From contig DATMIF010000004.1 of the NCBI GenBank assembly GCA_035554655.1, positions 8,922 through 72,921 on the forward strand: a DNA stretch of 64,000 nt, read 5' to 3'. Positions 22,080 to 55,150 of this stretch are shown one piece after another (the first letter of the stretch is position 1; every line of letters begins with the position of its first letter). The notes beneath the pieces were generated by a model that ran no database searches, was not told where the DNA came from, and was given only the letters and a program-made list of their open reading frames with translations. The stretch comes from Flavisolibacter sp. (GTDB lineage: Bacteria > Bacteroidota > Bacteroidia > Chitinophagales > Chitinophagaceae). The translations under genes and the position numbers were made by a program.

Positions 22080-22165
22080 AACGGTATATTTTGTTGAGCT
22101 CAACCGGAGCAGTAATATCAATGTCTATCGCTGCAATTTAAGGCAGTTAAAAATATTTTCACTTT

Positions 22166-23910: not shown

Positions 23911-23937
23911 CAGTCTCTTTGTTTAAAATCCGTCAGT

Positions 23938-23980
23938 GGTTTTTATTGGAAGTTTTTTCTTTTCAGTTTTAGATATTTTG
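23938..23980 (+). promoter_or_regulatory. Promoter with the shared 20-bp motif (copy 1), upstream of the RraA-like/enolase/MFS/ALDH operon
   Basis: ggtttttattggaagttttt lies at 23938-23957. A -7-like box TATTTTG lies at 23974-23980, starting 17 nt past the end of the 20-mer. The ATG is 102 nt from the motif start. Confidence 0.6.
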
Positions 23981-24039
23981 TATCCTGTAGTGTTAACCGC
24001 ATTCTTAAAATTATAGTCACTACTAAAACCACTTGCAAT

Positions 24040-27850: not shown

Positions 27851-27881
27851 TTCATTTATTTTGCTCATCAAAATTTATTTC

Positions 27882-37598: not shown

Positions 37599-37611
37599 TT
37601 TCAATAATTTT

Positions 37612-38502
37612 TTAGTCGGTCGTTGGTATATTTTTCTTTCTAAACTCACTGGGCGTATAGCCCGTTAGCTTTTTGAATGTAGTTGCAAAGTGTTGTGATG
37701 AATAGAATCCGATATCCAGCGCAATGTCTGTAACATGGACATCCGGACGTTTCAACAATTTGATCGCTTCGGAAATTCTAATGTTGATCAGGTAATTCAA
37801 TGGTGAAAAGCCCGTATAGCTTTTTACTTTTTCTGAAAAGGCAGTTGTTCCTAATCCAACCAAGGCTGCCATTTCTTCTACGGTCCATTGATGTGAAAGG
37901 TTTTCGCGGAGCGCTTGTTCCAACTTCATAAATGTTTGAGGAAAATCCCTTCTCGAATTATTCTGCCTTGTTAGCTGTCTTGCTGATAAAATAAAAAGTT
38001 CATCTATTAATTGGTTGATGCGTGCGGTATATCCAATTTCCTGGTTGATGAATTCATTCTGCATGCATTGAAATATTGAACCAGCTTCTTTTATTTTAGA
38101 AAGAATGGGGCAGTTGTTGAGCATGAGAATTTTTCCAATCGTCCTGCATTCGCTGTCTGCAAGATGACTCCATTTGCCCATTGCCATATTTCCCGTTTTT
38201 TCCAGTTGTTGTAACTCAAGGTGCAGCCATGAAACAGTTCCGATATCAAGCAAATCTTTTTCGCCGCCGAAACTTTGTCCAGGTAAAATAATAGCCAGGT
38301 CCTCGGGATAAAGTATGTGATGCTCATTATTAATGATCCAGTCAAAACGGCCATCAAGTACATAATAAAAACGGAGAAATTCTGAAGCTTCTTTTTTTAA
38401 AGAATCAAACTGTATAGTGTTGGTTTTCCTTAGTGCGAATTCGATAATATGAGGGAAGGCATGAAGCTCTTTGTTATCTTTTTTTAAGAGGAACTGGTTC
38501 AT
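37612..38502 (-). CDS. AraC-family transcriptional regulator (cupin sensor + HTH_18)
   Basis: The C-terminal double HTH is present (WTVEEMAALVGLGTTAFSEKVK...VTDIALDIGFYSSQHFATTFKKLTGYTPSEFR). It is divergent from the SusC promoter. Confidence 0.9.
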   Translation of the reverse strand: MNQFLLKKDNKELHAFPHIIEFALRKTNTIQFDSLKKEASEFLRFYYVLDGRFDWIINNEHHILYPEDLAIILPGQSFGGEKDLLDIGTVSWLHLELQQLEKTGNMAMGKWSHLADSECRTIGKILMLNNCPILSKIKEAGSIFQCMQNEFINQEIGYTARINQLIDELFILSARQLTRQNNSRRDFPQTFMKLEQALRENLSHQWTVEEMAALVGLGTTAFSEKVKSYTGFSPLNYLINIRISEAIKLLKRPDVHVTDIALDIGFYSSQHFATTFKKLTGYTPSEFRKKNIPTTD

Positions 38503-38577
38503 GCAATCGTTAGGTTTCTAAATTCCGAAAACGATATTACTAATAAAATCTAAACAGCTTGTACAATATCCTTCGCT

Positions 38578-38620
38578 GTTTTTTATTGGAAGTTTTTTGT
38601 TCAAAACTTCAGATACTTTG
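38578..38620 (+). promoter_or_regulatory. Promoter with the shared 20-bp motif (copy 2), in the AraC-SusC divergent region
   Basis: gttttttattggaagttttt at 38578-38597 matches copy 1 at 19/20 positions. The -7-like box TACTTTG lies at 38614-38620 with the same spacing. The ATG is 103 nt from the motif start. Further positional identity to copy 1 extends for about 45 bp. Confidence 0.6.
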
Positions 38621-38680
38621 TTATAGCATAAAAACCCTTACTGGTTTTGAGCGGTATTAAATAACAAACCCCTTGCTATT

Positions 38681-41600
38681 ATGAGAAGTAGACTACGGCA
38701 GTTGTCTGCCCCATTTAACTATCTGTTCGTTTTAGTTTCCCTTTTACTTTTCTCTTCTGCAGCTTTTTCACAATCAGTTTCCGGAACTGTTACTGACGGT
38801 ACCAAGCCAATAGGCCAGGTAACGATACAGGTTAAAGGCACATCGAGGACAGCCCAAACTGATGATGCAGGAAAGTACACCATCAAAGCTTCAGGCAACG
38901 ACGTGTTGATTTTTTCTTCTGTTGGTTTTTTAAAACAGGAACTGGCTGTCAATGGCAAACAAACACTGGATGTTGTTTTGTTTACAGACGCAAAAAACAT
39001 GGAAGATGTTGTAGTAACAGCATTAGGCATCAGTAAAAGAACAAGAGGACTGGGTTACTCCGCAACAAGCGTGAAGCCGGATGAACTAACGGAGAACCGC
39101 ACTACAAATCCGATTAATGCATTGGAAGGGAAAGTTGCCGGCGTAAACATTACAAGCCTGGGCACAGGTCCCGGTGGGTCTTCTAAGGTCCGTATCAGGG
39201 GGCAATCGGCAATTACAGTTGGCGACAACGGGCCGCTTATTGTTGTTAATGGAGTTCCCATCAATAACGGAAGTAATACTGCAAACTTCAATAATGGTAC
39301 GGTCGGTGTTTCAGGAGGAGGTGCTTATGCAGATGGGGGGGATAACTATTCAAGTATCAATCCTGATGATATTGAAAGCATGACTGTTTTGAAAGGAGCA
39401 CCTGCTGCAGCCCTCTATGGTTATCGTGCAGCCAATGGTGTAATTATGATCACAACAAAAACAAAAGGAAAGGGCAGGGGTATCGGTGTATCTCTCAATT
39501 CGAATTACACCAATGAGACTCCGTTGGATTACACAGACTATCAAAAAGTATATGGACAAGGTGAGAATGGTGTGCGTCCTACAACAATAAATCCAACTTC
39601 CGGCGAATGGTCTTTTGGAGAAAAGATACAGGCGGGCATGACCAATATTCTTTTTAATAATCTGACGGTTCCGTACGTAGCTCAAGGCAGTCGCATAAAA
39701 GAATTTTACCGGCATGGACAGAACTTTTCCAATACCGTTACTTTGGAAAGTTCCACAGATAAAGGAGGATTGCATTTATCATTAAATAATACAGACAATT
39801 ACGGCATTACGCCCAATAATAAATTCAATCGAAAGAACATGAACCTTGGTTTCAATCATAATTTGTCGAACCAGTTCAGTTTCGGTGGAAACATTAATTA
39901 TTCAAGAGAGTTTAATCGCAACCCGCCAAACATTGCCAACCAGGATAATTCTATTCCAACGACACTAATGGCTTTGGCCAACACGATGCCTTTGAGTGTA
40001 CTTAAAGAAAATATGTACAATGCCCAGGGAAACGAATATGTCTTCTCCAGGTTTATGAATCGTACCAATCCTTACTGGGTATTGGAAAACCAGTTTCATA
40101 ATATCAAACGCGACAGGCTTTACGGAAATGTTTTTGCAAAATATAACATTCTTCCATGGTGGTGGGTGCAGGGCCGCTTCGCTCAAGACTTTTACTCACG
40201 TGATGAAGATCTAAACAATTTCCCGACAGGACATGCATCCCGTTCTCCTGCACCTGCAGGTTTCGTAAACGGCGTTTACACGCAGGAGTCCCGCCGTTTC
40301 AGGGAGACAAATCTTGACTTCTTGAGCAGTGCAAACAAAACTTTTGGAGATATGGATGTAACGCTTACTGTTGGTGGTAATGAAATGCGCAGGCGCACTG
40401 ATATCAATAATGTACAGGTAACGGACTTTGTAGTAAAAGGTTTGTACACAGTTCAAAATGGAAGAGCCAAAAATCCTGTCTATGCGCTTGAAGAAAAAGG
40501 GGTGAACTCGCTTTATGGTTCTGCTGATCTTTCATGGAACAAAACATTCTATTTAACGGGTTCTGTAAGAAAAGACTGGTTCTCAACTTTATCTGCTGAA
40601 AATAATGGTATACTGTATCCTTCTGTTTCTGGTTCCTACGTTTTTTCGGAGTCACTTAAAGTTCCATGGTTAACATTTGGTAAGGTACGTCTTGGTTATG
40701 CTGAAGTAGGAAGCGATGCAGATCTTCAGCCATATGCAGATCAACTTTTTTATAGTGTAAATGCTAACACTATAAACAATCCTGCGGGTACTGCAGTAAC
40801 TGTTGGAAGCAGCGGGGCAGTTCTTCCGAATAAGAATTTGAAACCAATGCGGATAAAAGAAACGGAGGCAGGTCTTGAATTAAAATTGTTTCAGAACAGG
40901 GTAAATCTTGATGTAGCGGTTTATAAAAAGATAACACTGGATCAAATCGTTTCTGTTCAAACATCAGACGCTTCGGGTTTTACAAGTACATTAATCAACA
41001 GCGGTGAAAGTCAGAACAAGGGTTTTGAAGGATTGTTGAATCTCATTCCTGTTCAGACAAAGACTTTCAGGTGGGAATTCACTGCAAATACTGCATATAA
41101 TAAAACCCGGGTAAATAAAATTATTACAGACAAAGCCGGGGAAAAACTAACAACAGGTTCTCATCCATTTAATGGAGAGGTTAGAATGGTAGTAGGACAG
41201 GAGATAGGCCAGATTGCGGGTTTCGGTTATGCACGAGATGCAAAAGGACAAATGGTCTTCCAGGCTAATGGACTTCCTCTTCGCAGTCCCGATTTTATTT
41301 TATTCGGAAGTGGTTTGCCAAAATGGACCGGTGGTTTCCTAAACAATTTTGCTTACAGAGGGCTAAATCTTTCTATATTGGTTGATTACAAATTAGGTAA
41401 CAAAATGCTATCGGGAACAAACTTCAACGCAGTGCGGCATGGCTTGCATATGATGACGCTAGAAGGACGTGAAACCGGTTTTGTCACCGGCAATGGTGTA
41501 AATCAATCTGGAGGTACAAACACTGCAAAAGCAGCTGTACAAACATATTGGGAACATCTGCGTTCGCAGCAAATTATAGAACCTGTGATTTATGACGGTG

Positions 41601-41842
41601 GCTTTTGGAAACTTCGCCAGGTGAGTTTAGGATATGATTTCACAAAACTTCTTCCTGGTAAATGGCCTATTAAAGGCGTCAAGCTTGATTTAGTTGCCAA
41701 TAATGTTTTACTCATTAAAAAATGGGTGGACAATATCGATCCGGAAACAGTGGGCTATGGTGTAGACGGCATGGTAGGCCTTGAATCTCCCGGCGTTCCA
41801 ACAACAAGAAGCCTCGGTGTGAATTTGAACCTTAAATTTTAA
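38681..41842 (+). CDS. SusC/RagA-family TonB-dependent outer-membrane transporter
   Basis: Signal peptide. CarboxypepD_reg-like domain (VSGTVTDG..GKYTIKA). Plug start DVVVTALGISKRTRGLGYS. The C-terminus ends in aromatic F. No STN (anti-sigma signalling) domain was seen. Confidence 0.95.
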   Translation: MRSRLRQLSAPFNYLFVLVSLLLFSSAAFSQSVSGTVTDGTKPIGQVTIQVKGTSRTAQTDDAGKYTIKASGNDVLIFSSVGFLKQELAVNGKQTLDVVLFTDAKNMEDVVVTALGISKRTRGLGYSATSVKPDELTENRTTNPINALEGKVAGVNITSLGTGPGGSSKVRIRGQSAITVGDNGPLIVVNGVPINNGSNTANFNNGTVGVSGGGAYADGGDNYSSINPDDIESMTVLKGAPAAALYGYRAANGVIMITTKTKGKGRGIGVSLNSNYTNETPLDYTDYQKVYGQGENGVRPTTINPTSGEWSFGEKIQAGMTNILFNNLTVPYVAQGSRIKEFYRHGQNFSNTVTLESSTDKGGLHLSLNNTDNYGITPNNKFNRKNMNLGFNHNLSNQFSFGGNINYSREFNRNPPNIANQDNSIPTTLMALANTMPLSVLKENMYNAQGNEYVFSRFMNRTNPYWVLENQFHNIKRDRLYGNVFAKYNILPWWWVQGRFAQDFYSRDEDLNNFPTGHASRSPAPAGFVNGVYTQESRRFRETNLDFLSSANKTFGDMDVTLTVGGNEMRRRTDINNVQVTDFVVKGLYTVQNGRAKNPVYALEEKGVNSLYGSADLSWNKTFYLTGSVRKDWFSTLSAENNGILYPSVSGSYVFSESLKVPWLTFGKVRLGYAEVGSDADLQPYADQLFYSVNANTINNPAGTAVTVGSSGAVLPNKNLKPMRIKETEAGLELKLFQNRVNLDVAVYKKITLDQIVSVQTSDASGFTSTLINSGESQNKGFEGLLNLIPVQTKTFRWEFTANTAYNKTRVNKIITDKAGEKLTTGSHPFNGEVRMVVGQEIGQIAGFGYARDAKGQMVFQANGLPLRSPDFILFGSGLPKWTGGFLNNFAYRGLNLSILVDYKLGNKMLSGTNFNAVRHGLHMMTLEGRETGFVTGNGVNQSGGTNTAKAAVQTYWEHLRSQQIIEPVIYDGGFWKLRQVSLGYDFTKLLPGKWPIKGVKLDLVANNVLLIKKWVDNIDPETVGYGVDGMVGLESPGVPTTRSLGVNLNLKF

Positions 41843-43392
41843 TGAAGTCAATTATGAAAAAAATATTCAGATATAGTTTGGTGTTCGTTGTAACAGCAGT
41901 CGCAATTTCGTGTACTAAGAAGCTTGAAGAAATAAATGTCAATAAAGTAAGCCCTACCTCACTTGATCCTGCCTTGCTGTTAAACAATGCCATTATCAAT
42001 ACATCCTTCCCAACCAAAACAGTTGTGTACGAGATGTCTATCGTTCAACAAATGGTTACACCTAATGGCGGTGTACTTGCGGGGGGTAATTTCAACCAGG
42101 ATAGTCGCGATGTAACGAACGCACCATTATGGGCAGGCTATTATCAAAACGTAATTAAGTATACACACGATGCAATTGTAAAAACAAAAGACGTTGCCGC
42201 AAGATCGAACCTTTACAATATGGCACGTATCTGGCAGGCCTATGCATTCATGGTGCTTACAGACACTTATGGTGCTATACCTTATACAGAAGGCGGCGCA
42301 GGATTAACAGATCAAATATTCTTTCCTAAGTACGATCAGCAGCAGGATATTTATCCAAAGCTTATCCAGGAGTTGACAGAGGCATCGGCTGCGTTAAGTA
42401 CCTCGGCAGCTGTGGAAGCTTCTGATATTCTCTACGCGGGAAATATAACTAAGTGGAAAAAGTTTGGATACTCTTTGCTTTTGAGAGTTGGAATGCGTTT
42501 AAGCAAAGTAGATCCTGCAAAAGCTCAAACAATAGTACAAGCTGCATTCACGGGGGGAGTAATAACAGACAATGCAGATAATGCCTATATGAGGCATGAT
42601 GCCAATTATCAAAGTCCTATAGGTGTGATGTTGAACGGTACAGAAGGTGCGAACTGGTATCTTGTAAAATCTTTTGTAGACACTTTGAAGAACAACAATG
42701 ATCCCCGTTTATCTGCTATTGCCATTCGTTACAAAGGTGCTACCTCAGGGCCAGGACAAACAGTAGACAAGGGATCAACTGCCCCTGCAGATCAAATTGG
42801 TATGCCGATGGGTTATGATAACGGGACCATTATAGCCCGAGTTACTTCCGACGGTCTTGCAAGTTTTTACGACTATAGCCAGTTGGATAGAAGAAGGATG
42901 GGAAAGACATCTGCTCCAATATTTTTTGTAACGGCTGCTCAAACAAATTTGTTATTGGCTGAAGCAAGATTCAGAGGTTGGATTACATCGGGTACGGCTG
43001 CACAATATTTTGCCGATGGCATAAAAGCTCACATGGATCAATTAGCTACTTATGACGCAGGTTCGGCCATTGCACCAGCCGCAAGGGATGCTTATATAGC
43101 TGCTCATCCGTTGATAGCAGGAAGAGAACTGGAACAGATCAATACGCAATATTGGATCGCTTCATTTTTAAATGGACCCGAAGCCTTTGCCAATTTCAGA
43201 AGATCCGGGTATCCTGCGCTAGCACCTAATCCATACGGACAGCCCAACAATCCTGATGTGCCGAACGGAACATTTATCAGGAGAATTGGCTACCCAACCT
43301 CAGAGCTATCGGTAAATAGCGCTAATGTAAATGCAGCAATAGCAACCATGGGCCCTGATAAATTGAGTACAAAACTGTGGTGGGACAAATAA
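41842..43392 (+). CDS. SusD/RagB-family nutrient-binding outer-membrane lipoprotein
   Basis: TAATG overlap with the SusC gene. Lipobox AISC. The C-terminal RRSGYPAL motif is typical of SusD-like proteins. An alternative start lies at 41854. Confidence 0.9.
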   Translation: MKSIMKKIFRYSLVFVVTAVAISCTKKLEEINVNKVSPTSLDPALLLNNAIINTSFPTKTVVYEMSIVQQMVTPNGGVLAGGNFNQDSRDVTNAPLWAGYYQNVIKYTHDAIVKTKDVAARSNLYNMARIWQAYAFMVLTDTYGAIPYTEGGAGLTDQIFFPKYDQQQDIYPKLIQELTEASAALSTSAAVEASDILYAGNITKWKKFGYSLLLRVGMRLSKVDPAKAQTIVQAAFTGGVITDNADNAYMRHDANYQSPIGVMLNGTEGANWYLVKSFVDTLKNNNDPRLSAIAIRYKGATSGPGQTVDKGSTAPADQIGMPMGYDNGTIIARVTSDGLASFYDYSQLDRRRMGKTSAPIFFVTAAQTNLLLAEARFRGWITSGTAAQYFADGIKAHMDQLATYDAGSAIAPAARDAYIAAHPLIAGRELEQINTQYWIASFLNGPEAFANFRRSGYPALAPNPYGQPNNPDVPNGTFIRRIGYPTSELSVNSANVNAAIATMGPDKLSTKLWWDK

Positions 43393-43554
43393 CGGACCTT
43401 AATATAATCTCTCAATGTAAGCAGTCAGACCTTATGTTTTCACGAGGGTCTTTTAAATCAACGGAATCTTGCTAAAAAATTTCTATTGTTGCAGCAATTA
43501 TTATTAAGATTTATTGATACAATGTGATTGAAAAGTGTTAATTAAGCGGACTCA

Positions 43555-45294
43555 ATGAAAAAAACTACAAGTCATAATTCTTCAAATAAACTTCGCAGCG
43601 CCGATTGGTTTGGTAAAGATGACAAGATGGGCTTTGTTCATCGTTCCTGGCTGCGCAACCAGGGATATCCGGACGATTATTTCAGAGGTAGACCCGTAAT
43701 AGGTATATGCAACACCTGGAGTGAATTGACTCCGTGCAATGGTCACCTTCGCGATTTTGCAGAAGTAGTGAAACGTGGTGTAATTGAAGCAGGTGGATTC
43801 CCTTTGGAGTTTCCTGTGACATCACTTGGAGAAACGATTATGCGGCCAACAACCATGTTGTTTCGCAATTTGGCGGCGATGGATACTGAAGAAACCATTC
43901 GTGCCAATCCAATTGATGGTGTTGTTTTACTTACAGGTTGTGATAAAACCACTCCTTCAACATTAATGGGGGCATGTAGCGTTGATCTTCCGACCATCGT
44001 TGTTCCCGGCGGACCGATGCTTAACGGAAGATTTAAGGGAGAATGTCTCGGCTCCGGATCATTCAACTGGATGGTGAAAGAAAAAATGCTGGTTGAGAAT
44101 TATTCTGCGGAAGATATTTTGGAAGCCGAAATAGGAGTGGCAAGAAGTGCAGGACATTGCATGACAATGGGAACTGCATCCACTATGGCTTGCATGGTAG
44201 AAGCTCTCGGTTTAACATTGCCGGGTGCGGCAGCAATTCCTGCAGTTGATTCAAGAAAGAAAGTAATGGCCCAACTATCGGGAAGAAGAATTGTAGAAAT
44301 GGTAAAGGAAGATCTTAAGCTTTCAAAGATTCTGACAAAAGAAGCTTTTGAAAATTCAATTGTTGTTAATGCCGGGGTTGGAGGATCTACAAATTTTATT
44401 ATTCATCTTATAGCAATTGCAGGAAGAATAGGCATTGAATTAAAGCTTGAAGAATTTGACAGCATCGGCAGTAAAATCCCCCTGCTTGTCAATTTAAAAC
44501 CTTCAGGCAAATACCTGATGGAAGATTTCTTTTACGCAGGGGGACTTCCTGTTGTAATTAAAGAGCTAAAGAAGTATTTGCATGCCGGTGCAATTACTGT
44601 AAATGGAAGGACTATTGCTGAAAACAATACTACTCCAATTTGTTACAACCAGGATGTTATTGCAACCATTGATAATCCCTTACAAGAAACCGCCGGTATT
44701 GCAGTGTTAAAAGGAAATCTTTGTGAAAACGGTGCGGTCATCAAACCTTCGGCAGCAACAAAAGAATTGATGCAGCATCGTGGTCCTGCAGTTGTGTTTG
44801 AAACCATAGAAGATTATCATGAAAGAATCGATGATCCTGATTTGGAAATAGATGAAAACTCAGTGATCGTTTTAAAGGGTGTGGGCCCTGTTGGCTACCC
44901 CGGCATGCCTGAAGTTGGTAATGTTGATCTTCCTGAAAAATTATTACGCAAAGGAATTAAAGACATGATTCGCATTTCGGATGGAAGAATGAGCGGCACC
45001 GCTGCAGGAACAGTAGTGCTTCATGTTTCCCCCGAATCGGCGGTAGGAGGAACACTTGCATTGGTGAAGAATGGAGATATGATTGAACTTGATGTTGAAA
45101 AAAGAAGACTGCATTTGGATGTCAGTGATGAAGAACTTCAAAAAAGAAGAAGTGAATGGAAAGCTCCGCAGCCAATGGCGCAGAGAGGTTATGCAAAAAT
45201 TTATATTGATCATGTGCAGCAGGCTCACCTCGGCGCCGACTTTGATATCCTAAATGGTGGATCAGATGGAGAAGTTACAAGAGATTTGCACTGA
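43555..45294 (+). CDS. IlvD/Edd-family dehydratase, L-arabinonate/D-xylonate dehydratase-like
   Basis: LRSADWFGKDDKMGFVHRSWLRNQGYP..PVIGICNTWSELTPCNGHL is typical of the pentonate-dehydratase clade. The Fe-S motif GCDKTTPS and the ISDGRMSG motif are present. No signal peptide. Confidence 0.85.
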   Translation: MKKTTSHNSSNKLRSADWFGKDDKMGFVHRSWLRNQGYPDDYFRGRPVIGICNTWSELTPCNGHLRDFAEVVKRGVIEAGGFPLEFPVTSLGETIMRPTTMLFRNLAAMDTEETIRANPIDGVVLLTGCDKTTPSTLMGACSVDLPTIVVPGGPMLNGRFKGECLGSGSFNWMVKEKMLVENYSAEDILEAEIGVARSAGHCMTMGTASTMACMVEALGLTLPGAAAIPAVDSRKKVMAQLSGRRIVEMVKEDLKLSKILTKEAFENSIVVNAGVGGSTNFIIHLIAIAGRIGIELKLEEFDSIGSKIPLLVNLKPSGKYLMEDFFYAGGLPVVIKELKKYLHAGAITVNGRTIAENNTTPICYNQDVIATIDNPLQETAGIAVLKGNLCENGAVIKPSAATKELMQHRGPAVVFETIEDYHERIDDPDLEIDENSVIVLKGVGPVGYPGMPEVGNVDLPEKLLRKGIKDMIRISDGRMSGTAAGTVVLHVSPESAVGGTLALVKNGDMIELDVEKRRLHLDVSDEELQKRRSEWKAPQPMAQRGYAKIYIDHVQQAHLGADFDILNGGSDGEVTRDLH

Positions 45295-45320
45295 TGATAT
45301 AATTAAAGGAAAATTTAAGC

Positions 45321-46148
45321 ATGAAAATATACAAGACAAAACAAGGAATTGCGGTTGAAAATGAAAATGGATTTTATTTACTCGATGAAGATTGGGAAAC
45401 ATTTATAAATGATGATGCTATTCTTCATAAGGTGAAAGAAAAGATCAAAGGCCTTTCACTCTCTCAAACTAACTCAATCGAAAACATACTTGCTCCCATT
45501 GGAAGCCGACAGGAACTGTGGGCATGTGGCGTTACTTATTTAAGAAGTAAAATTGGAAGGCAGGAAGAAAGTAAAGATGCAGGCGGAGGTGATTTTTATG
45601 CAAGAGTATATGAAGCAGAAAGGCCCGAAGTTTTTTTTAAAGCAAATCCTCACCGGGTAGTTGGTCATAATGATAAAGTAAGAATAAGGAAAGACTCCAC
45701 ATGGGATGTTCCTGAACCTGAACTTACACTGGTTGTTTCTTCGTCCGGAAAAATTATTGGTTACACTATCGGCAACGATATTAGCAGCCGTAGCATTGAA
45801 GGAGAAAATCCACTCTATCTGCCACAGGCAAAAACCTATGATGCCTGTGCGGCACTTGGTCCATGCATTTATCTTACCGAAGAACCGCTTGACAGAAATA
45901 CAACTATCCACCTGGAAATAAACAGAGACAGAGAAACCGTTTTTAACGGAAGTATCGCCATCTCGCAAATAAAAAGATCATTTGGCGAATTGGTGTCTTT
46001 TGCTTTCAGGGAATGTTCTTTTCCTTATGGCTGTTTAATTATGACAGGAACTGGCATTGTTCCTGAAAATGATTTTACGCTTAAGAGCGGCGATGAAATA
46101 AAAATTTCTATTGACAGAATCGGAACCCTGGTAAATGAAGTAGAGTAA
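45321..46148 (+). CDS. Fumarylacetoacetate hydrolase (FAH)-family protein, 2-keto-3-deoxy-pentonate dehydratase-like
   Basis: The size, FAH-type C-terminal half ([29 protein letters not shown]) and position directly after a pentonate-type dehydratase support the call. Confidence 0.7.
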
Positions 46149-46238
46149 CTGGCGCAGGTTTATTTTTTGATCAAAGACTCTCAATTATTTTTCAAGCGAT
46201 AGCTTTGTCTATCCCTTCATTCAGTTGAAGAAATCTTT

Positions 46239-47438
46239 ATGGTAGGAACACTCAAAAAATTTTCGATCTTTTCTTTAACTGTTATGGCGATAACAAGCTT
46301 GACTCCTTTGATTTCGCTTGCACAACAAAAAGATTCAAAGTCAACTTCCGCAAATAAAAAAGAAAAAACACTAAAAGAAGTTTACAAAGATGCATTCCTG
46401 GTGGGTGTAGCCGTTAATCCTTCAATTACCTCCGGTGCGGACAAACCCTCCCAGAATATTGTACTCAAACATTTCAACGCCATTACTGTTGAAAATGTAA
46501 TGAAGGCAGCATTGATCAACCCTCAACCCGGTGTTTACAACTGGGGACCTGCGGATGATTATGTGGCCTTTGGTGAAAAAAATAAAATGTTTATTGTAGG
46601 TCACACACTTGTTTGGCATAACCAGGTTCCTGCGTGGTTCTTTACCAATGCAGAAGGAAAGCCAAACACAAAAGAAGAACAGATTGAGCGATTGCGAAGC
46701 CACATACAGACTGTCGCCAGGAGATATGTTGGCCGCGTAAACGCCTGGGATGTGGTGAATGAAGTGATGGGTGAAGACGGAAATTATCGCTCTACAAGTT
46801 GGGTCAACGCCGTTGGTAATGGCGATACGTTAGTAAAGTATGCTTTCAAATTTGCTGTCCAATATGCGCCGAATACAGAATTATACTACAACGATTTCAA
46901 TGCATGGCGTCCGTCGAAAAGGGATGGTATTGTCCGCATGATAAAAATGCTGCAAAAAGAAGGGATACGCATTGATGGTATTGGTATGCAGGGACACTGG
47001 GGATTAAACTATCCAAAAACAAAATACATTGAAGACGCCATTGATGCTTATGCTGCATGTGGTGTAAAAGTGATGATCACTGAACTGGACGTAGATGTTC
47101 TTCCTCTGACGAAAGAAGGACAGATCATCGGGCAGGGCATGGCGGACAAACAATTTCAGTTAGTAGAATTCAAAACGTTTCTAGATCCATATCAAAAAGG
47201 TTTGCCCGATAGCATGCAAAAACTGCTAGCCCTCCGTTACGCTGAGCTATTTTCGATTTTTTATAAGAGGAGGGACAAAATCGCAAGAGTAACGTTGTGG
47301 GGTGTGCATGACGGAATGAATTGGAAGAACGATTATCCCGTTCCGGGTAGAACAAATTATCCCTTATTGTGGGATAGGCAACACAGACCTAAACCTGCTT
47401 TTTATGCTGTACTGAACGTGCCTTCTCAATCTAAATAG
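46239..47438 (+). CDS. GH10 endo-1,4-beta-xylanase
   Basis: WDVVNEV (acid/base Glu) and ITELDV (nucleophile Glu) motifs are present. Signal peptide present. A candidate -7 box TAGCTTTG lies at 46200-46207. Confidence 0.9.
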   Translation: MVGTLKKFSIFSLTVMAITSLTPLISLAQQKDSKSTSANKKEKTLKEVYKDAFLVGVAVNPSITSGADKPSQNIVLKHFNAITVENVMKAALINPQPGVYNWGPADDYVAFGEKNKMFIVGHTLVWHNQVPAWFFTNAEGKPNTKEEQIERLRSHIQTVARRYVGRVNAWDVVNEVMGEDGNYRSTSWVNAVGNGDTLVKYAFKFAVQYAPNTELYYNDFNAWRPSKRDGIVRMIKMLQKEGIRIDGIGMQGHWGLNYPKTKYIEDAIDAYAACGVKVMITELDVDVLPLTKEGQIIGQGMADKQFQLVEFKTFLDPYQKGLPDSMQKLLALRYAELFSIFYKRRDKIARVTLWGVHDGMNWKNDYPVPGRTNYPLLWDRQHRPKPAFYAVLNVPSQSK

Positions 47439-47719
47439 TTGTTGAAAACACTTCCAACACCACCTGATTAACTACCAGAATTGTCGCCAAAAATTGAGTT
47501 TTAATAATTACGATCCCATCGGTTTGTCTTCCAATAAATAGTTCTTGGATAGGCGGGTGTAATAATTTCCATGTAATTACGGGCCTTTCGAATGGTGTAA
47601 CTCTCCAGACAGTTCGAAAAGAGCAATTTTTTCTTTTTTTCTTTCTTAAATTTTCCTTTATTTTTGAATTGTACTGATTTTTTTCGAAAATTTTCTATTT
47701 TATTCTTAAAGACAAGCTT

Positions 47720-48526
47720 ATGGCAAATGCCTATTCCGGGCATATGACGGCAAATCACCGACGGGAAAAAATTCTCGAACTGATCAAAGAGGATGGATCG
47801 GCAAAGGTGGTTGAGCTTGCAAAAATCTTTAAGGTTACTGAACCAACTATTCGCCAGGACCTGGAAAAATTAGAAAAAGATGAACTCGTTATCCGTGAGC
47901 ATGGCGGTGCGTATTTGAAGAACGTTGACATGAATGTGCGTTCCGTATCCTTAGCCCACCAAGAGCATTTAGATAAAAAAGAAATCATTGCCAGGAAATG
48001 CCTGGAGTTTCTCGAACCCGGTGATACCATCATCTTGGACTCCGGTTCAACAACTACAGAAATAGCAAAAAAACTTAAAGGCTTTAAGCAACTAACGGTC
48101 ATCACCAATGCCTTAAATATTGCATTAATGCTTGGTGCCGAACCAGGCATTGAAGTCCTTGTTACAGGGGGTGAGTTTAAACCACCAACGTTATCGTTAA
48201 CCGGACAAAAAGCAGCAGATTTTTTTAGTGGCATTAATGCACAAAAATTGTTTTTAGCAACTGCGGGCATTTCACTAAAGTCGGGTTTAACCTATCCAAG
48301 CATAAGTGATCTTGTTGTAAAGAAAGCAATGATCGATGCCTCGGAAGTTACCTATCTCGTTGCCGACTCAACCAAAATTGGTAAAAGCGCCTTTGCGAGC
48401 CTCGGAGCTTTATCCCTCATCAATTATATCATTACCGATGAAGGGATAGAGGACAAACACAAGGAAATTTTTCTCGATAACGAAATTGAATTGATCATAG
48501 CAACCGAAAAAAATGGAAGTAAATAA
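47720..48526 (+). CDS. DeoR/GlpR-family transcriptional regulator
   Basis: The N-terminal HTH (REKILELIKEDGSAKVVELAKIFKVTEPTIRQDLEKL) and a DeoR C-terminal sugar-phosphate sensor domain are present. An alternative start lies at 47744. Confidence 0.9.
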   Translation: MANAYSGHMTANHRREKILELIKEDGSAKVVELAKIFKVTEPTIRQDLEKLEKDELVIREHGGAYLKNVDMNVRSVSLAHQEHLDKKEIIARKCLEFLEPGDTIILDSGSTTTEIAKKLKGFKQLTVITNALNIALMLGAEPGIEVLVTGGEFKPPTLSLTGQKAADFFSGINAQKLFLATAGISLKSGLTYPSISDLVVKKAMIDASEVTYLVADSTKIGKSAFASLGALSLINYIITDEGIEDKHKEIFLDNEIELIIATEKNGSK

Positions 48527-49940
48527 TAAATCAGTTGTAAGTATAGGTGTCATTATTGGCAACAGGGATTTTTTCCCTGACAAATTAGTGGGCGAATGCC
48601 GTGCAGATCTGTTAGATGCATTTAAGAAGGCAGGCATAAAACCAATCATGCTGGACGAGAATGAAACCAAATTAGGAGGTGTTGAAACCTTCCAGGAAGC
48701 ACAAAAATGTGCGGCATTATTTAAAAAGCATGCAGACGAAATCATTGGTGTTTTGGTAGTGTTACCAAATTTCGGGGATGAGAAAGGAGTAGCAGAGACA
48801 TTGAAGCTTGCAGGTTTGAATGTTCCTGTTTTGGTGCAGGCTTATCCTGACGATCTAAATAAATTAGATGTCGCAAGACGGAGAGATGCCTGGTGTGGCA
48901 AGATATCCGTTTGCAATAACCTTTACCAATACGGAATTAAATTTTCTCTAACAACAAAGCATGTTGTTCATCCCTCCGACGAAAGCTTTGCACAGGATTT
49001 AAAAGATTTTATTGCTGTTTGCAGGGTGGTAAAAGGTTTAAGAAATGTAAGAATCGGAGCGGTAGGAGCAAGACCCGGAGCGTTTAACACGGTTCGCTAC
49101 AGTGAAAAAATATTGCAGCGCAATGGAATTTCCGTTGTTACGATTGATCTTTCTCACATTCTTGGTGCCGCAGACAAGCTTACTAAAAATGATAGCAGCG
49201 TCAAAGAAAGGCTCGATGCGATCAGGGCATATTCTCCAACAGGAAGAACACCTGAGGACAAGCTGGTTCAAATAGCAAAACTGGATGTCGTGCTTCACGA
49301 TTTTATGCAGGAGCATGCTCTTGACGCAACAGCAATCCAATGCTGGACATCGCTTCAGCAGAATTATGGATGTAACGTTTGCACTAGCATGAGCATGATG
49401 AGTGAAAACATGTTGCCTAGCGCATGTGAAGTAGATGTAACCGGAACGCTTACCATGTATGCAATGCAATTAGCATCAGGTTCACCCAGCGCATTAGTTG
49501 ACTGGAATAATAACTATGCAAGTGATGATGAGAAAGTAGTGTTATTCCATTGCGGCAATTGGGCAAAATCATTCCTGCCAGACATCGAAATAAGTACAGC
49601 GCCAATTTTAGGAACTACTGTCGGCGAAGAAAATACTTACGGCGCTTTGGCCGGTCGTACACCTGCTTCACCTCTTACTTATGGAAGAATCAGTACCGAT
49701 GACACCAAAGGAATTATTAAAGCTTATGTAGGTGAAGGTGCTTTAACTGATGATGAATTAAAAACATTCGGAACAAGAGCTGTTGCCAAAATAAGTGATC
49801 TGCAGGGATTGATGAAGTATGTATGCAAAACAGGCTTTGAACATCACGTGGTAATGAACGCTTCAAGAACAGCAGGTATATTAAAGGAGGCTTATGAAAA
49901 CTACATGGGTTGGGAAGTGTATCATCACGGTGGAAATTAG
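48513..49940 (+). CDS. L-fucose/L-arabinose isomerase-family protein (aldose-ketose isomerase, substrate unknown)
   Basis: The size and pattern match FucI/AraA-like family members (IGVIIGNRDFFP, LPNFGDE, RIGAVGARP, FHCGNW). It overlaps the DeoR stop by 14 nt. Confidence 0.75.
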   Translation: MEVNNKSVVSIGVIIGNRDFFPDKLVGECRADLLDAFKKAGIKPIMLDENETKLGGVETFQEAQKCAALFKKHADEIIGVLVVLPNFGDEKGVAETLKLAGLNVPVLVQAYPDDLNKLDVARRRDAWCGKISVCNNLYQYGIKFSLTTKHVVHPSDESFAQDLKDFIAVCRVVKGLRNVRIGAVGARPGAFNTVRYSEKILQRNGISVVTIDLSHILGAADKLTKNDSSVKERLDAIRAYSPTGRTPEDKLVQIAKLDVVLHDFMQEHALDATAIQCWTSLQQNYGCNVCTSMSMMSENMLPSACEVDVTGTLTMYAMQLASGSPSALVDWNNNYASDDEKVVLFHCGNWAKSFLPDIEISTAPILGTTVGEENTYGALAGRTPASPLTYGRISTDDTKGIIKAYVGEGALTDDELKTFGTRAVAKISDLQGLMKYVCKTGFEHHVVMNASRTAGILKEAYENYMGWEVYHHGGN

Positions 49941-49976
49941 TTATGAAATGTTTTTAAGAATCTAATCAGAGAAGAG

Positions 49977-50807
49977 ATGACAGTAAGTGAACTAACAAAG
50001 AAATCCATTGAGTACAGGAAAAATATTCTGAAGTATATTTTCCATGCAAATGCCGGTCATACTGGCGGAAGTCTTTCATGTATTGATATTTTGAATGTGT
50101 TGTATAATCATGTGATGAATGTGAGTCCTGAAAATTTTAAGTCTCCTGATCGCGACAGGTACATTCAAAGCAAAGGGCACAGCGTTGAAGCTTTGTATGT
50201 TGTGTTGGCCGACAAAGGATTTTTTCCCGAATCAGATTTGGAAACACTTTGCAAATACGGCTCACATTACATTGGTCATCCAACAAAAAAAGTAAATGGT
50301 GTGGAACAGAACACCGGTGCACTGGGTCATGGACTTCCTATTTGTGCAGGAACGGCTTTGTCAGCAAAACTGGATAATAAAAGTTTCCGCGTTTTTACAC
50401 TCTTAGGTGATGGCGAATTACCTGAAGGCTCTAACTGGGAGGCTGCACTTACAGCATCGCACTACAAGTTGGATAACTTATGTGCCGTCATTGATAATAA
50501 CAAATTGCAAATAACTGGTCCAACCTCCGAGGTTTGTAATACCGAGCCGATTGACAAAAAATTTGAAAGTTTTGGTTGGTCCGTCAGGCATGTTGATGGG
50601 CATGACTATGATGCACTTATACAAACTTTCGATGCGCTGCCTTTTGAAAAGGGTAAACCAAGTTTAGTTATTGCACATACTACAAAAGGTAAAGGCATTA
50701 GCTATATGGAGAACAACGTTAAGTGGCATCATGGTGTTCCCAATGAAAAACAATTTGAAGAAGCATTGAGTGAATTGGAAAGTGTAACGGTGCCTGACGA
50801 TTTTTAA
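49977..50807 (+). CDS. Transketolase, N-terminal (TPP-binding) subunit
   Basis: GHTGGSLSCIDIL and GDGELPEGSNWEA motifs are present. The split-transketolase architecture is completed by the next gene. Confidence 0.9.
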   Translation: MTVSELTKKSIEYRKNILKYIFHANAGHTGGSLSCIDILNVLYNHVMNVSPENFKSPDRDRYIQSKGHSVEALYVVLADKGFFPESDLETLCKYGSHYIGHPTKKVNGVEQNTGALGHGLPICAGTALSAKLDNKSFRVFTLLGDGELPEGSNWEAALTASHYKLDNLCAVIDNNKLQITGPTSEVCNTEPIDKKFESFGWSVRHVDGHDYDALIQTFDALPFEKGKPSLVIAHTTKGKGISYMENNVKWHHGVPNEKQFEEALSELESVTVPDDF

Positions 50808-50826
50808 AGAGCATAACAAAGGTCAA

Positions 50827-51813
50827 GTGGAAGAAATAATAGAAAACAAGAAGACAGCAAAAGCCAACCTTGAAGTTTTTTCCGAAACACTTCAGCAACT
50901 GGCAAAAGACGATCGCAATATCATTGTTGTGACAAGCGACTCACGTGGTTCCGGTAAGCTTGTGCCCTTCGGACAAAAATTTCCTGCACAGCATATTGAA
51001 GTAGGTATTGCAGAACAAAATCTTGTTGGTGTTGCGGCAGGTCTTGCTTCAACGGGCAAAAAAGTATTTGCTGTATCACCGGCGTGCTTCCTTTCCGCAA
51101 GAGCATTGGAGCAAATAAAAAATGATGTTGCCTATTCTGATAACCCTGTTAAATTAATTGGTATCAGTGCGGGTGTAAGTTATGGAGCATTGGGTTCAAC
51201 GCATCACAGTTTACACGACTTTGCTGTTTTGCGTGCCATCAATAACATAACAATTGTTGCGCCGGCAGATAACTTTGAAACTGAAGAAGTGATTAAAAAA
51301 TCTGCTGCGGCAAATACACCTTTTTACATACGCTTCGGAAAGAAATCAATGCCTTTGCTAAGCGAACAAAATCATGAATTTGAATTTGGCAAAGGTCGTA
51401 TCATAAAAGAAGGGGATGATATTGCATTGATCGCAACGGGAGAAACTGTTTATCCCGTTTTGCTTGCCGCACAAAAGCTGCAGCAAAAGAATATTCATGC
51501 AACGGTAATTAGCATGCATACGATAAAACCTTTGGACTACGAGTTGATCGGTAAGATCGCATCAAAGGGTTTCCCAATAATTACGGTAGAAGAACATAGT
51601 GTTTTCGGAGGGCTTGGTGAAGCCTGTGCTTCTTTCCTTTTGCAAAATGGTTACAGTAATAAGTTTAAAATAATTGGCATTCCCGACGAATACACTGTTA
51701 CAGGATCGCAGTCGGAAATATTTAATTACTATGGAATTTCCGAAAATGGGATTTCCGAAAAAGCACTGGAATTATTAAACAGGAAAAACTCCAGAATTTT
51801 AGATGAAGATTGA
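50827..51813 (+). CDS. Transketolase, C-terminal (pyrimidine-binding) subunit
   Basis: EVGIAEQNLVGVAAGLA motif present. GTG start at 50827. Adjacent to the N-terminal subunit gene. Confidence 0.9.
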   Translation: MEEIIENKKTAKANLEVFSETLQQLAKDDRNIIVVTSDSRGSGKLVPFGQKFPAQHIEVGIAEQNLVGVAAGLASTGKKVFAVSPACFLSARALEQIKNDVAYSDNPVKLIGISAGVSYGALGSTHHSLHDFAVLRAINNITIVAPADNFETEEVIKKSAAANTPFYIRFGKKSMPLLSEQNHEFEFGKGRIIKEGDDIALIATGETVYPVLLAAQKLQQKNIHATVISMHTIKPLDYELIGKIASKGFPIITVEEHSVFGGLGEACASFLLQNGYSNKFKIIGIPDEYTVTGSQSEIFNYYGISENGISEKALELLNRKNSRILDED

Positions 51814-51847
51814 CAAAGCAAACTCAAAAAGCGAATAGCGATTAATA

Positions 51848-53374
51848 ATGGTCGGGAATAAATCTTACATATTAGCAATTGACCAAGGAACAAGTGGCAC
51901 GAAAACAATTTTGTTTGACGAAGAAGGTAAAGTTGTTGTAAAAGTTACCGAACCATTGAAGACTTATTTTTTGGAAGGCGGTTCTGTTGAACAGGATCCG
52001 GAAGAAATCCATCAGAACGTATTGACGTCGGTTGAACAATGTGTTGAAACATTCAAGTCGAATGGCGGTGACATTGCTGAAATTAAAGCTTGTGGCATTT
52101 CCAATCAAAGAGAAACTTTTGTGATTTGGGATGAAAACGGAAAGCCATTATATAATGCTGTGGTGTGGCAATGCAAACGTTCTATTCAAATTTGCGAACG
52201 TTTAAAAAGCGCTGGACTTGAAGAACAAATAAAAAAGAAAACGGGCTTGATTATCGACCCTTATTTTTCCGGGACGAAATTGATGTGGCTTTGTGAAAAT
52301 GTAAGTAATGTCCGAAACGCAATAGATGCAGGCAAGGCTTATTTCGGAACAATTGATGCATGGCTATTATATAAGCTGACAAGCGGCAAAAGTTATTTTA
52401 CAGATTACACCAATGCATCGAGAACATTGTTCTTTAACCTCCAGGATCTTTCATGGGACAAAGAACTACTTAACGCTTTTGGATTATCTGACATTAATCT
52501 TCCCCAGGCAAAACCATCTTCATATCTATTCGGCGAAACTGATTTCAATGGAATAATCAGCAACAAAATTCCAATCACCGGTATGATTGGTGATTCGCAT
52601 GCTGCAGCTTTTGGAGAAGGCTGTTATTCACTTGGTACTGCTAAAGCAACACTCGGTACAGGTTCATCCATTATAATGAATATCGGTACTGAAGTGAAGT
52701 CATCTCAAAACGGAATGGTAACAACGATTTGCTGGAGCACAGAAAACCGTGTCGACTATGCCTTAGAAGGTGTAATCGTTAGTTGCGGTGCTACCATAGA
52801 ATGGATAAAGAATGAATTGGGTTTGATCAATGATAGCAAAGCCACAGAAGCCATGGCAACTTCTGTTAACGATAACAATGGAGTTTATTTGATTCCTGCA
52901 TTTAGTGGATTGGGTGCACCGCATTGGGATATGAATCGCAAAGCTTCTATCACGGGATTAACATTTGACTGCAATAAAAATCACATCGTTCGTGCTGCTT
53001 TAGAATCCATTCCATATCAAATCAAAGATGTGATTGTTGCAATGGAACAGGATGCAGAAATTGAACTGGAGCAGTTGATGGTTGATGGAGGAATTACGTC
53101 TAACAAATTCGTTCTGCAATTTTTAGCTGATTTGCTGCAACGAACAATTGTAACCATCGGCATACCGGATGTTTCTGCTCTTGGAGCAGCATATATGGCA
53201 GGTTTGAAAATTGGCGTTTATAAGGGCATCGAACATTTAAAAATTTTGAACAGCAATAAAAGTTTTGTATATCCTGCAGATAATACAAAAGTGATTGACT
53301 GGTACGAAGGCTGGAGAGCAAACATTAGAAGCAAGGCTGAAAAATTGTTTATTGAATCTGGATCAGAAAGCTAA
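51848..53374 (+). CDS. FGGY-family kinase, glycerol-kinase-like
   Basis: AIDQGTSGTKTILFDEEG, NQRETFVIWD, GDSHAAAFGEGC and VDGGITSN motifs are present. Confidence 0.85.
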   Translation: MVGNKSYILAIDQGTSGTKTILFDEEGKVVVKVTEPLKTYFLEGGSVEQDPEEIHQNVLTSVEQCVETFKSNGGDIAEIKACGISNQRETFVIWDENGKPLYNAVVWQCKRSIQICERLKSAGLEEQIKKKTGLIIDPYFSGTKLMWLCENVSNVRNAIDAGKAYFGTIDAWLLYKLTSGKSYFTDYTNASRTLFFNLQDLSWDKELLNAFGLSDINLPQAKPSSYLFGETDFNGIISNKIPITGMIGDSHAAAFGEGCYSLGTAKATLGTGSSIIMNIGTEVKSSQNGMVTTICWSTENRVDYALEGVIVSCGATIEWIKNELGLINDSKATEAMATSVNDNNGVYLIPAFSGLGAPHWDMNRKASITGLTFDCNKNHIVRAALESIPYQIKDVIVAMEQDAEIELEQLMVDGGITSNKFVLQFLADLLQRTIVTIGIPDVSALGAAYMAGLKIGVYKGIEHLKILNSNKSFVYPADNTKVIDWYEGWRANIRSKAEKLFIESGSES

Positions 53375-54740: not shown

Positions 54741-54955
54741 ATCTATAATTCTTAAAGCAACCGCTTCTACACATAATAATTCCCATCTTATCTTCTGCAC
54801 ATAGATTTTTAAACATTTCGTGCATTAAAATAATTATTTGTGCTATTGATTGGCACTGCCTTGCTGGAATTTTAGCCTGTAAGCTCCAATAACTGAAACA
54901 GGAGGTTTGTAAGGTGGTAAAAAGTTATTAACCCGTTTGTTCAGAATTCTTCAAT

Positions 54956-54998
54956 GGTTTTTATTGGAAGTTTTTAAACCTTTGGGTTGAATACCTTG
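54956..54998 (+). promoter_or_regulatory. Promoter with the shared 20-bp motif (copy 3), upstream of the esterase/GH8 array
   Basis: ggtttttattggaagttttt at 54956-54975 is identical to copy 1. The -7-like box TACCTTG lies at 54992-54998 with the same spacing. The leader to the ATG at 55163 is longer, about 165 nt. Confidence 0.55.
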
Positions 54999-55150
54999 TG
55001 ACTATTAGTTTCAATTTTGTTTGCTGAAATGTAACCATGCGAATTCGTAAAAGGCAAACACTGCTCTTAAATCCCTTTCAACTTGCAGGGGAAATCAACC
55101 AATCGTTCAGGACATTCATGTTTAACCATAACAACCAGTTCTTAATTTAA

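Follow-up and report, generated by a model that had tools for sequence, protein, structure and literature searches.

Oxidative, non-phosphorylative pentose catabolism is conventionally linked with Proteobacteria and Archaea, and the biology of polysaccharide utilization loci (PULs) in Bacteroidota assumes that xylose and arabinose enter metabolism through isomerases and kinases. Here, we analyzed a 64,000-nt stretch of a Flavisolibacter sp. genome (Chitinophagaceae; GenBank assembly GCA_035554655.1, contig DATMIF010000004.1, positions 8,922 to 72,921 of the forward strand; hereafter the window), in which a gene of the IlvD/EDD dehydratase family and a gene of the FAH family follow the SusC and SusD genes of a xylan PUL. 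The two genes probably encode the two cytoplasmic dehydrations of a Weimberg-type oxidative pentose pathway, and they appear to be transcribed with SusC, SusD and a glycoside hydrolase family 10 (GH10) xylanase gene as part of an AraC-controlled arabinoxylan locus.

Closest described systems

The xylXABCD system of Caulobacter crescentus likewise combines an IlvD/EDD pentonate dehydratase, an FAH-family keto-deoxy-pentonate dehydratase and an aldehyde dehydrogenase (ALDH) leading to 2-oxoglutarate, and has a lactonase step too. Its dehydrogenase is the cytoplasmic short-chain enzyme XylB, whereas the candidate here is a Gfo/Idh/MocA-family protein with a twin-arginine (Tat) export signal; in addition, the predicted lactonase here is an exported lipoprotein of the SGL family, a GntP-type permease would link periplasm and cytoplasm, and the genes stand behind SusC/SusD and are divided between two loci. 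The archaeal pathways of Sulfolobus/Saccharolobus and Haloferax (KdaD/KDXD; XacD, XacE, XacF) provide the closest solved relative of the FAH protein (2q18), and in Haloferax the Gfo/Idh/MocA family supplies the xylose dehydrogenase. There, however, the pentonate dehydratases belong to the enolase superfamily rather than to IlvD/EDD, all steps are cytoplasmic and no PUL context exists. In the AraA-E pathway of Azospirillum brasilense and Rhizobium, a Gfo/Idh/MocA L-arabinose 1-dehydrogenase is paired with an IlvD/EDD L-arabinonate dehydratase, but the enzymes are cytoplasmic and the L-keto-deoxy-arabinonate dehydratase is of the DHDPS/NAL family and not FAH (PMC9795676).

The best solved relatives of the candidate dehydrogenase are the Caulobacter aldose-aldose oxidoreductase (AAOR; CC1225) and the Zymomonas glucose-fructose oxidoreductase (GFOR), which also carry periplasmic export signals. 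Caulobacter AAOR, which converts D-xylose alone to D-xylonate and xylitol, carries a putative signal for the periplasm, and a predicted gluconolactonase gene adjoins its own gene (PMC4628093). Its NADP is tightly bound and regenerated within the oxidation-reduction cycle (PMC9795676). These two papers treat the biochemistry of CC1225, and neither describes a downstream catabolic pathway for it (PMC4628093, PMC9795676); the genes of the Bacteroidota homologues are linked to those for a lactonase, an aldonate permease and the predicted enzymes of the lower Weimberg pathway.

Gene-level calls of this kind are nothing unusual, and other PULs also contain catabolic genes: in the alginate, carrageenan and ribose (rus) PULs, cytoplasmic enzymes for the released sugar also follow SusC/SusD, although with kinase/aldolase or isomerase chemistry. 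The only trace of the arrangement that came to light is in a survey of rus-type loci, where a figure legend abbreviates, among other genes, kdxD, an AraC regulator and an NADP-aldehyde dehydrogenase; in the accessible part of that preprint the kdxD-bearing loci are drawn without being interpreted as an oxidative pentose route (bioRxiv 10.1101/574913). The AraR paper makes no mention of dehydratases or dehydrogenases. A preliminary description of this DNA, made from its sequence, had known of no PUL embedding such a route, and our full-text literature search (most subscription journals lie outside it) likewise found no description of the arrangement. Within the literature searched, the lower Weimberg pathway behind SusC/SusD, its conservation across many Bacteroidota genera and its coupling to an exported AAOR-like oxidoreductase, a lactonase and a GntP permease all appear to be undescribed.

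The IlvD/EDD and FAH genes of the xylan locus

Window genes were called from a list of open reading frames (ORFs), families were assigned by Pfam profile search and signal peptides were predicted separately. The central genes, in window numbering, are the following.

37612 to 38502, minus strand: AraC-family regulator, divergent from SusC (Pfam HTH_AraC and HTH_18); adjoins SusC in most related loci
38681 to 41842, plus strand: SusC-type TonB-dependent transporter (Pfam Plug and CarbopepD_reg_2)
41842 to 43392, plus strand: SusD-like lipoprotein (Pfam SusD-like_2, 271 bits; lipoprotein-type signal predicted)
43555 to 45294, plus strand: IlvD/EDD pentonate dehydratase, L-arabinonate-dehydratase-like (predicted, cytoplasmic; 579 aa, no signal peptide)
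45321 to 46148, plus strand: FAH-family 2-keto-3-deoxy-pentonate dehydratase, KdaD type (predicted, cytoplasmic; 275 aa, no signal peptide)
46239 to 47438, plus strand: exported GH10 endo-xylanase (predicted; 399 aa, Pfam Glyco_hydro_10 302.6 bits, signal peptide)

SusC, SusD, IlvD/EDD, FAH and GH10 lie head to tail on the plus strand, with gaps of 162 nt between SusD and IlvD, 26 nt between IlvD and FAH and 90 nt between FAH and GH10, so that the ORFs and Pfam bear out the order given in the preliminary description. The adjacent SusC/SusD pair, the AraC regulator and an array of GH10, GH8, GH43, GH67 and esterase genes make this region a PUL, and the same hydrolases together with esterases of feruloyl type give it an arabinoxylan context. 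A promoter and terminator scan of positions 38400-48000 returned counts no better than shuffled sequence, with a sigma-70 model unfit for Bacteroidota, and therefore provides no evidence on operon limits.

The subtypes of the two enzymes were judged by ranking bit scores against solved structures in the PDB. The IlvD/EDD protein carries ILVD_EDD_N (368.9 bits) and ILV_EDD_C (226.2 bits) and passes the NCBIfam subfamily NF004784 (908 bits, cut-off 539), while staying well under the ilvD, edd and YjhG/YagF models. It matches solved structures strongly (E 5.3e-241), ranking first with 8ej0 (804 bits) and the Rhizobium leguminosarum L-arabinonate dehydratase 5j83/9evv (758 bits), followed at a distance by a galactonate dehydratase (492 bits), 5oyn, which we take to be the Caulobacter xylonate dehydratase (444 bits), dihydroxy-acid dehydratases (~339 bits or less) and EDD (176 bits). 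The motifs CNGH, GCDKTTPS, GHCMTMGTAS (C-x-TMGTAS) and RMSGTA occupy the same alignment columns as their counterparts in 5j83 and 8ej0; they presumably hold the three [2Fe-2S] Cys ligands, the Asp-Lys Mg site and the catalytic Ser of R. leguminosarum ArDHT. On the branched-chain ilvD model TIGR00110 (cut-off 618 bits), the protein reaches only 465.6 bits, whereas the genome's true ilvD, elsewhere in the assembly, reaches 740.2 bits. The protein is thus a predicted dehydratase of the pentonate type, closest to L-arabinonate dehydratase, which upholds the arabinonate/xylonate assignment of the preliminary description; grouping with branched-chain IlvD, which that description had named as a refuting outcome, is not seen in these scores.

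The FAH protein (Pfam FAA_hydrolase, 77.1 bits) has KdaD 2q18 as its closest solved relative, the match covering residues 49-274 (187.6 bits, E 2.4e-54). The metal-binding positions of 2q18 in its E-x-E ... D pattern, which we take to be E143, E145 and D164, align with E, E and D of the window protein. All other solved FAH enzymes score 80 bits or less, the second-best being 9kkt, a 383-aa FAH chain (80 bits), and diketo-deoxy-rhamnonate hydrolase scores only 35.8 bits. The protein is accordingly, as far as fold relatives and metal triad can tell, a short archaeal-type KdaD, that is, a predicted 2-keto-3-deoxy-pentonate dehydratase as had been proposed, and differs in this from the Caulobacter arrangement.

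Conservation of the block

Below, C-numbers denote contigs of the window genome (5.6 Mb), and L- and G-numbers denote loci and genomes of the comparison sets. A scan of species-representative genomes for relatives of the FAH protein yielded 395 loci, and the window proteins were mapped onto the best 80 of them, almost all from Chitinophagaceae and other Bacteroidota. The block of FGGY kinase and AraC, divergent from SusC, SusD, IlvD and FAH, recurs in the isolates Segetibacter koreensis, Flavisolibacter nicotianae, Paracnuella aquatica, Cnuella takakiae and Terrimonas species, as well as in many metagenome-assembled genomes (MAGs). The PUL-embedded layout is therefore real and widely conserved in related genera.

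Gene order was analyzed in the 52 loci with at least 7 kb of upstream sequence. Under a strict chaining rule for adjacency, SusD directly precedes the pathway genes in at least 22 of them. A GntP gene follows FAH in 27/52 and an SGL gene is adjacent in 25/52; a Gfo/Idh/MocA gene lies within 6 kb in 11/52 and an ALDH gene within 4.5 kb in 6/52. Fuller versions (for example L023, L027, L049 and L064) read SusC-SusD-IlvD-SGL-FAH-GntP, SGL and GntP being the two genes absent from the window block, and L063 reads IlvD-SGL-FAH-GH10-GntP, with a GH10 protein 80% identical to that of the window. A Ferruginibacter MAG has the order Tat-Gfo/Idh/MocA, GH88, IlvD, SGL, FAH, GntP, GH10. Outside PULs, the genes form complete operons: two Cyclobacteriaceae MAGs carry an NrtR/AraR-type regulator, ALDH, IlvD, FAH, GntP and Tat-Gfo/Idh/MocA genes in a row beside a GH51 arabinofuranosidase gene, beyond which lie homologues of the araB-/araD-like genes found on C34 of the window genome. 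With its AraR (NrtR-type) regulator and GH51 gene, this Cyclobacteriaceae version recalls the L-arabinose pathway of Azospirillum/Rhizobium.

An ALDH operon with a shared upstream element

The preliminary description had placed an ALDH behind a promoter carrying a motif shared within the window. The gene is a genuine ALDH, and the element stands upstream of its operon.

23919 to 23981, plus strand: shared element copy 1, upstream of the RraA-like/enolase-type/MFS/ALDH operon
38559 to 38621, plus strand: shared element copy 2, upstream of SusC
54937 to 54999, plus strand: shared element copy 3, upstream of the esterase/GH8 array
26564 to 27850, plus strand: MFS transporter of the sugar-acid (D-galactonate transporter) subfamily, candidate importer of acid intermediates (Pfam MFS_1; TIGR00893 264 bits, below the cut-off of 395)
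27861 to 29492, plus strand: cytoplasmic NAD(P) aldehyde dehydrogenase, candidate 2,5-dioxopentanoate (alpha-ketoglutarate semialdehyde) dehydrogenase (Pfam Aldedh 167 bits; no signal peptide)

The ALDH gene starts with a TTG at 27861, the start given earlier (27882) being the first ATG, and it is the fourth and last gene of the operon headed by element copy 1. The element is a 63-nt repeat (repeat family D1) with three copies in the window. Its exact 16-mer core occurs at these 3 sites, a number reached in 0 of 100 window shuffles, and has no other exact copy in the rest of the genome. We regard the repeat as a putative promoter/operator element common to the ALDH and SusC operons, through which the window ALDH is probably co-regulated with IlvD and FAH. 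A copy of the core with one mismatch, the sole such copy close to sugar genes, is found at C34:129298, ~2 kb from the araB-/araD-like genes (C34:124935-127315), and may be a coincidence or point to a connection with arabinose metabolism.

Among solved structures, the ALDH is closest to the Vibrio harveyi NADP-ALDH 1eyy (434 bits) and 3v4c (413 bits), a type that we believe to be grouped with KGSADH-II/III in CDD cd07129. Homologues 46-49% identical to it lie directly beside IlvD or FAH in L014, L019, L034, L038, L040 and L072, a synteny that favours the proposed role. A second ALDH-family paralogue, 45% identical to the window protein, stands alone among unrelated genes (BshC, glycosyltransferase-like) at C26:771554-773068 (L091:9552-11036). 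The window ALDH, the C26 ALDH or both could act as the semialdehyde oxidiser.

The RraA-like gene that opens the operon (24040-24969) has as its second-best NCBIfam match the C-terminal half (positions 265-476) of the 501-position model NF009399 (72.5 bits, cut-off 444), annotated as "fumarylacetoacetate hydrolase family protein". The model may represent a fusion of an FAH and an RraA-like domain, which, if real, may hint that the two domains work together.

A candidate periplasmic front end on two operons

Two exported proteins upstream of this operon had been proposed as a periplasmic front end.

22798 to 23910, plus strand: Tat-exported Gfo/Idh/MocA oxidoreductase, AAOR/GFOR-like, candidate periplasmic oxidiser of pentoses at C1 (twin-arginine motif SRRDFLQK)
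21258 to 22121, minus strand: exported six-bladed NHL-type propeller (Pfam Arylesterase and SGL below cut-off, no significant stretch)

For the oxidoreductase, the proposal is plausible. Its matches in the PDB are led by 5a02, the Caulobacter AAOR (E 7.1e-91), with Zymomonas GFOR next (E 1e-74), and orthologues 71-73% identical to it adjoin IlvD-FAH in L022, L037 and L039. A paralogue with 45% identity is encoded on C10; both proteins rank Caulobacter AAOR first (308 and 277 bits) and GFOR second, and both have the Haloferax D-xylose 1-dehydrogenase Gfo6 as their top NCBIfam match, below cut-off (206.6 bits against 350 for the window protein). The propeller, by contrast, was rejected as a lactonase: its Pfam scores are sub-threshold, and its PDB matches are Pizza designs, PknD NHL sensor domains and a CJ1041C chain, none of them named a lactonase. 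A paralogue of the propeller, 78% identical, is encoded on C38.

The lactonase candidate lies on C10 (C10:114531-122703), where orthologues of the Gfo/Idh/MocA (64-65% identity), SGL (70%) and GntP (66-72%) proteins found in the clusters of relatives are encoded. These genes form the tail of a long minus-strand xylan operon that starts with GH115, GH10, an MFS_2 transporter and GH43, continues with several oxidoreductases and esterases, a CE15-like esterase and a CE4 deacetylase, and ends with the Gfo/Idh/MocA gene, a PD40 propeller, GH3, SGL (a lipoprotein; Pfam SGL 127 bits) and GntP. The route is thus split in this genome, and it is the second xylan operon that encodes the lactonase and the permease, together with one of the two oxidoreductase paralogues. 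The SGL and Gfo/Idh/MocA proteins of relatives' operons carry predicted lipoprotein and twin-arginine signals, respectively, which would place the first two steps in the periplasm and leave GntP as the bridge to the cytoplasmic enzymes. Dismutation of the AAOR type would also solve the electron-acceptor problem of a periplasmic oxidation, if the Bacteroidota proteins share it.

Between the GH43 and esterase genes of the C10 operon (C10:126000-133000; L089:2266-7055), three more Gfo/Idh/MocA-type oxidoreductases, one of them with an Oxidoreduct_C domain, are encoded together with a cupin.

Isomerase routes in the same genomes

The preliminary description saw no xylose isomerase and xylulokinase pair in the window. 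No xylA was indeed found within its 64 kb, but the window holds two FGGY kinases (36072-37649 and 51848-53374), besides a FucI-like isomerase with a split transketolase. Elsewhere in the genome, xylA lies on C10 (682 bits, above cut-off) and adjoins an FGGY kinase gene whose product scores higher than any other of the genome on the xylulokinase model (310 bits, below the cut-off of 380), the pair spanning C10:152744-155589; araA lies on C53, adjoining an AraR homologue.

To place this in the family, 151 genomes were sampled, one per genus plus one extra from the window's own genus. FAH was found in 52 of them and the pentonate-type IlvD in 58, with both in 48, FAH only in 4 and IlvD only in 10. 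The xylA gene is present in 92 of the 151 genomes and in 50 of the 52 FAH-positive ones, the two others being 71% and 75% complete. GntP proteins at least 64% identical to the C10 permease occur in 17/151 genomes, within ~1.3 kb of FAH in 15 of the 17. As the genomes are related and hence not independent of one another, the counts show a pattern and do not amount to a statistical test. G103, a complete genome of the same genus, has xylA, gave no FAH or pentonate-type IlvD match and has a best SusD match of only 36% identity, so the whole locus seems accessory within the genus. The presence of xylB-xylA and araA, and of xylA in nearly all FAH-positive relatives, led us to reject a replacement of the isomerase route, and with it the opposition of the two routes drawn in the preliminary description. 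The oxidative route accompanies the isomerase routes without taking their place, as an accessory addition to xylan degraders that bear xylose isomerase.

Immediately after GH10, positions 47720-53374 hold a DeoR regulator, the FucI-like isomerase, the split transketolase and a glycerol-kinase-like FGGY kinase (51848-53374), which is a phosphorylative sugar module inside the same region.

Proposed pathway and alternatives

In the proposed pathway, xylan fragments would enter through SusC/SusD and be cut to pentoses in the periplasm, where the Tat-exported AAOR-like Gfo/Idh/MocA enzyme would oxidise the pentose at C1 to a lactone and the SGL-family lipoprotein lactonase would open it. The pentonate would be imported by the GntP-type permease, possibly also by the MFS or a BASS-family carrier of the window, and converted by IlvD/EDD to 2-keto-3-deoxy-pentonate, by the KdaD-type FAH protein to 2,5-dioxopentanoate and by the NAD(P)-ALDH to 2-oxoglutarate. 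The substrates would be D-xylonate and/or L-arabinonate. The sequences themselves show the family and subtype of each enzyme, where it is predicted to reside, the order of the genes, the shared element and the joint occurrence of the genes across genomes; substrates, flux, the acting ALDH and transporter and any dismutation by the oxidoreductase are inferred from these. In the archaea Sulfolobus acidocaldarius and Haloferax, the FAH enzyme is used for both pentoses. The nearest relative of the IlvD protein, an L-arabinonate dehydratase, and the AraR-type regulator of the Cyclobacteriaceae operon point to L-arabinose; the GH10 gene among the pathway genes points to D-xylose, as does the characterised FAH enzyme of S. 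solfataricus, whose specificity is of the D type (PMC9795676).

As a tentative and more far-reaching proposal, which we consider less likely than not, xylan PULs of Chitinophagaceae and other soil Bacteroidota may have a compartment-split Weimberg pathway hard-wired into them: a periplasmic AAOR-type enzyme would dismutate pentose to pentonolactone and pentitol with no external electron acceptor, the lipoprotein lactonase and GntP would feed the cytoplasmic IlvD/EDD, KdaD and ALDH, and xylA/xylB would handle the rest.

Several observations weigh against the Weimberg-type assignment. The physiological need for the route is unclear when xylA and araA are both present. On NF009559, the equivalog model for L-arabinonate dehydratase, the IlvD protein scores 850.7 bits, 31 under the cut-off of 882, for which reason it is termed arabinonate-dehydratase-like and not an equivalog. 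As far as is known, characterised bacterial FAH-type enzymes act on the D-isomer of the keto-deoxy acid, and this substrate may not pair with an IlvD protein nearest the L-arabinonate enzyme. The ALDH reaches no NCBIfam equivalog (GucD 92.7 bits against 770, DioxValDh 95.9 against 750); it sits with an exported RraA-like protein, a Tat-exported enolase-type protein and an MFS transporter of sugar-acid type and may primarily serve that module, and the ALDH next to FAH in L014, L019 and L034 resembles the C26 paralogue more closely (59-62% identity). A genome search found no close copy of the operator core before the C10 lactonase, permease and oxidoreductase genes, so the two halves of the route may not be co-induced. 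Finally, in five loci (L034, L008, L015, L016 and L024) FAH follows SusD without an intervening IlvD. The first of these, from Ilyomonas limi (L034:1507-12381), reads BASS, RraA-like, enolase-type, SusC, SusD, FAH and ALDH on one strand, which suggests that, in some lineages, an exported dehydratase of enolase type can supply the substrate of the FAH enzyme, maybe replacing IlvD.

A different account, which we consider rather unlikely, is that the organism salvages pentonates or C1-oxidised xylo-oligosaccharides made by others' oxidases, lytic polysaccharide monooxygenases or periplasmic dehydrogenases; these would be imported, and IlvD, FAH and ALDH would burn xylonate or arabinonate with no need for an oxidoreductase of its own. 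The aldonate permease GntP is indeed FAH's most constant partner, many PUL-type loci, including the SusC operon of the window, have no oxidoreductase in the block, free pentoses are already handled by xylA and araA, and the organism stems from soil or rhizosphere metagenomes. A lactonase gene between IlvD and FAH in 25/52 loci, however, implies a locally made lactone, Tat-Gfo/Idh/MocA genes adjoin the pair in 11/52, and no glycosidase specific for aldonate-ended oligosaccharides was identified.

It seems improbable that the pair serves a sugar acid from outside xylan, such as D-galactonate, D-fuconate or another rare acid, with the FAH protein acting as a hydrolase, isomerase or decarboxylase. 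Relatives of L-arabinonate dehydratase also accept D-galactonate and D-fuconate, the IlvD protein lies just under the NF009559 cut-off, and the locus holds other sugar-acid enzymes in the form of two exported enolase-type/RraA-like pairs. On the other side, the gap between the KdaD score of the FAH protein and its scores with all other solved FAH enzymes, diketo-deoxy-rhamnonate hydrolase included, argues for a dehydratase, the 4-dehydrogenase that a hydrolase route would need is not adjacent, and the neighbours are xylanases, arabinofuranosidases and alpha-glucuronidases. That the IlvD/EDD gene is an ordinary branched-chain dihydroxy-acid dehydratase merely next to a PUL, as its Pfam domains and the NCBIfam subfamily names ("dihydroxy-acid dehydratase") would allow, is hardly credible and was rejected given the TIGR00110 shortfall beside a separate true ilvD on C15, the PDB ranking, the tight linkage to FAH, lactonase and GntP genes across genera and the absence of a match in G103.

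If the Weimberg-type pathway operates as proposed, soil xylan degraders would send part of their pentose flux straight to 2-oxoglutarate with no carbon loss or ATP investment, which would be relevant to carbon-flux models of plant-litter decay. Under the compartment-split proposal, PULs could fix the metabolic fate of a sugar and not only its uptake, and the AAOR enzyme family would gain a physiological role, a natural role for it being suggested by the genetic link. New enzyme sets for xylonate and 2-oxoglutarate-derived bioproducts would also become available. The same block in the culturable Segetibacter koreensis, Flavisolibacter nicotianae, Cnuella takakiae, Paracnuella aquatica and Terrimonas species makes the proposal testable.

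Other features of the region

Two further genes belong to the divergent AraC operon.

34917 to 36044, minus strand: BASS-family transporter, candidate hydroxy-/keto-acid importer (Pfam SBF; NCBIfam PanS-like 250 bits)
36072 to 37649, minus strand: FGGY kinase, gluconokinase/xylulokinase-like (TIGR01314 451 bits, XylB model 276 bits, both below cut-off)

By synteny, the kinase gene stands beside AraC in related loci too, and the BASS gene beside the FGGY-AraC pair. A SusD paralogue, 38% identical to the window protein, is encoded on C16, where the contig ends right after it. Inside the xylan-degradation region, a gene of the Pfam Alginate_lyase family (274.9 bits) lies at 20061-21245, adjoining the NHL propeller.

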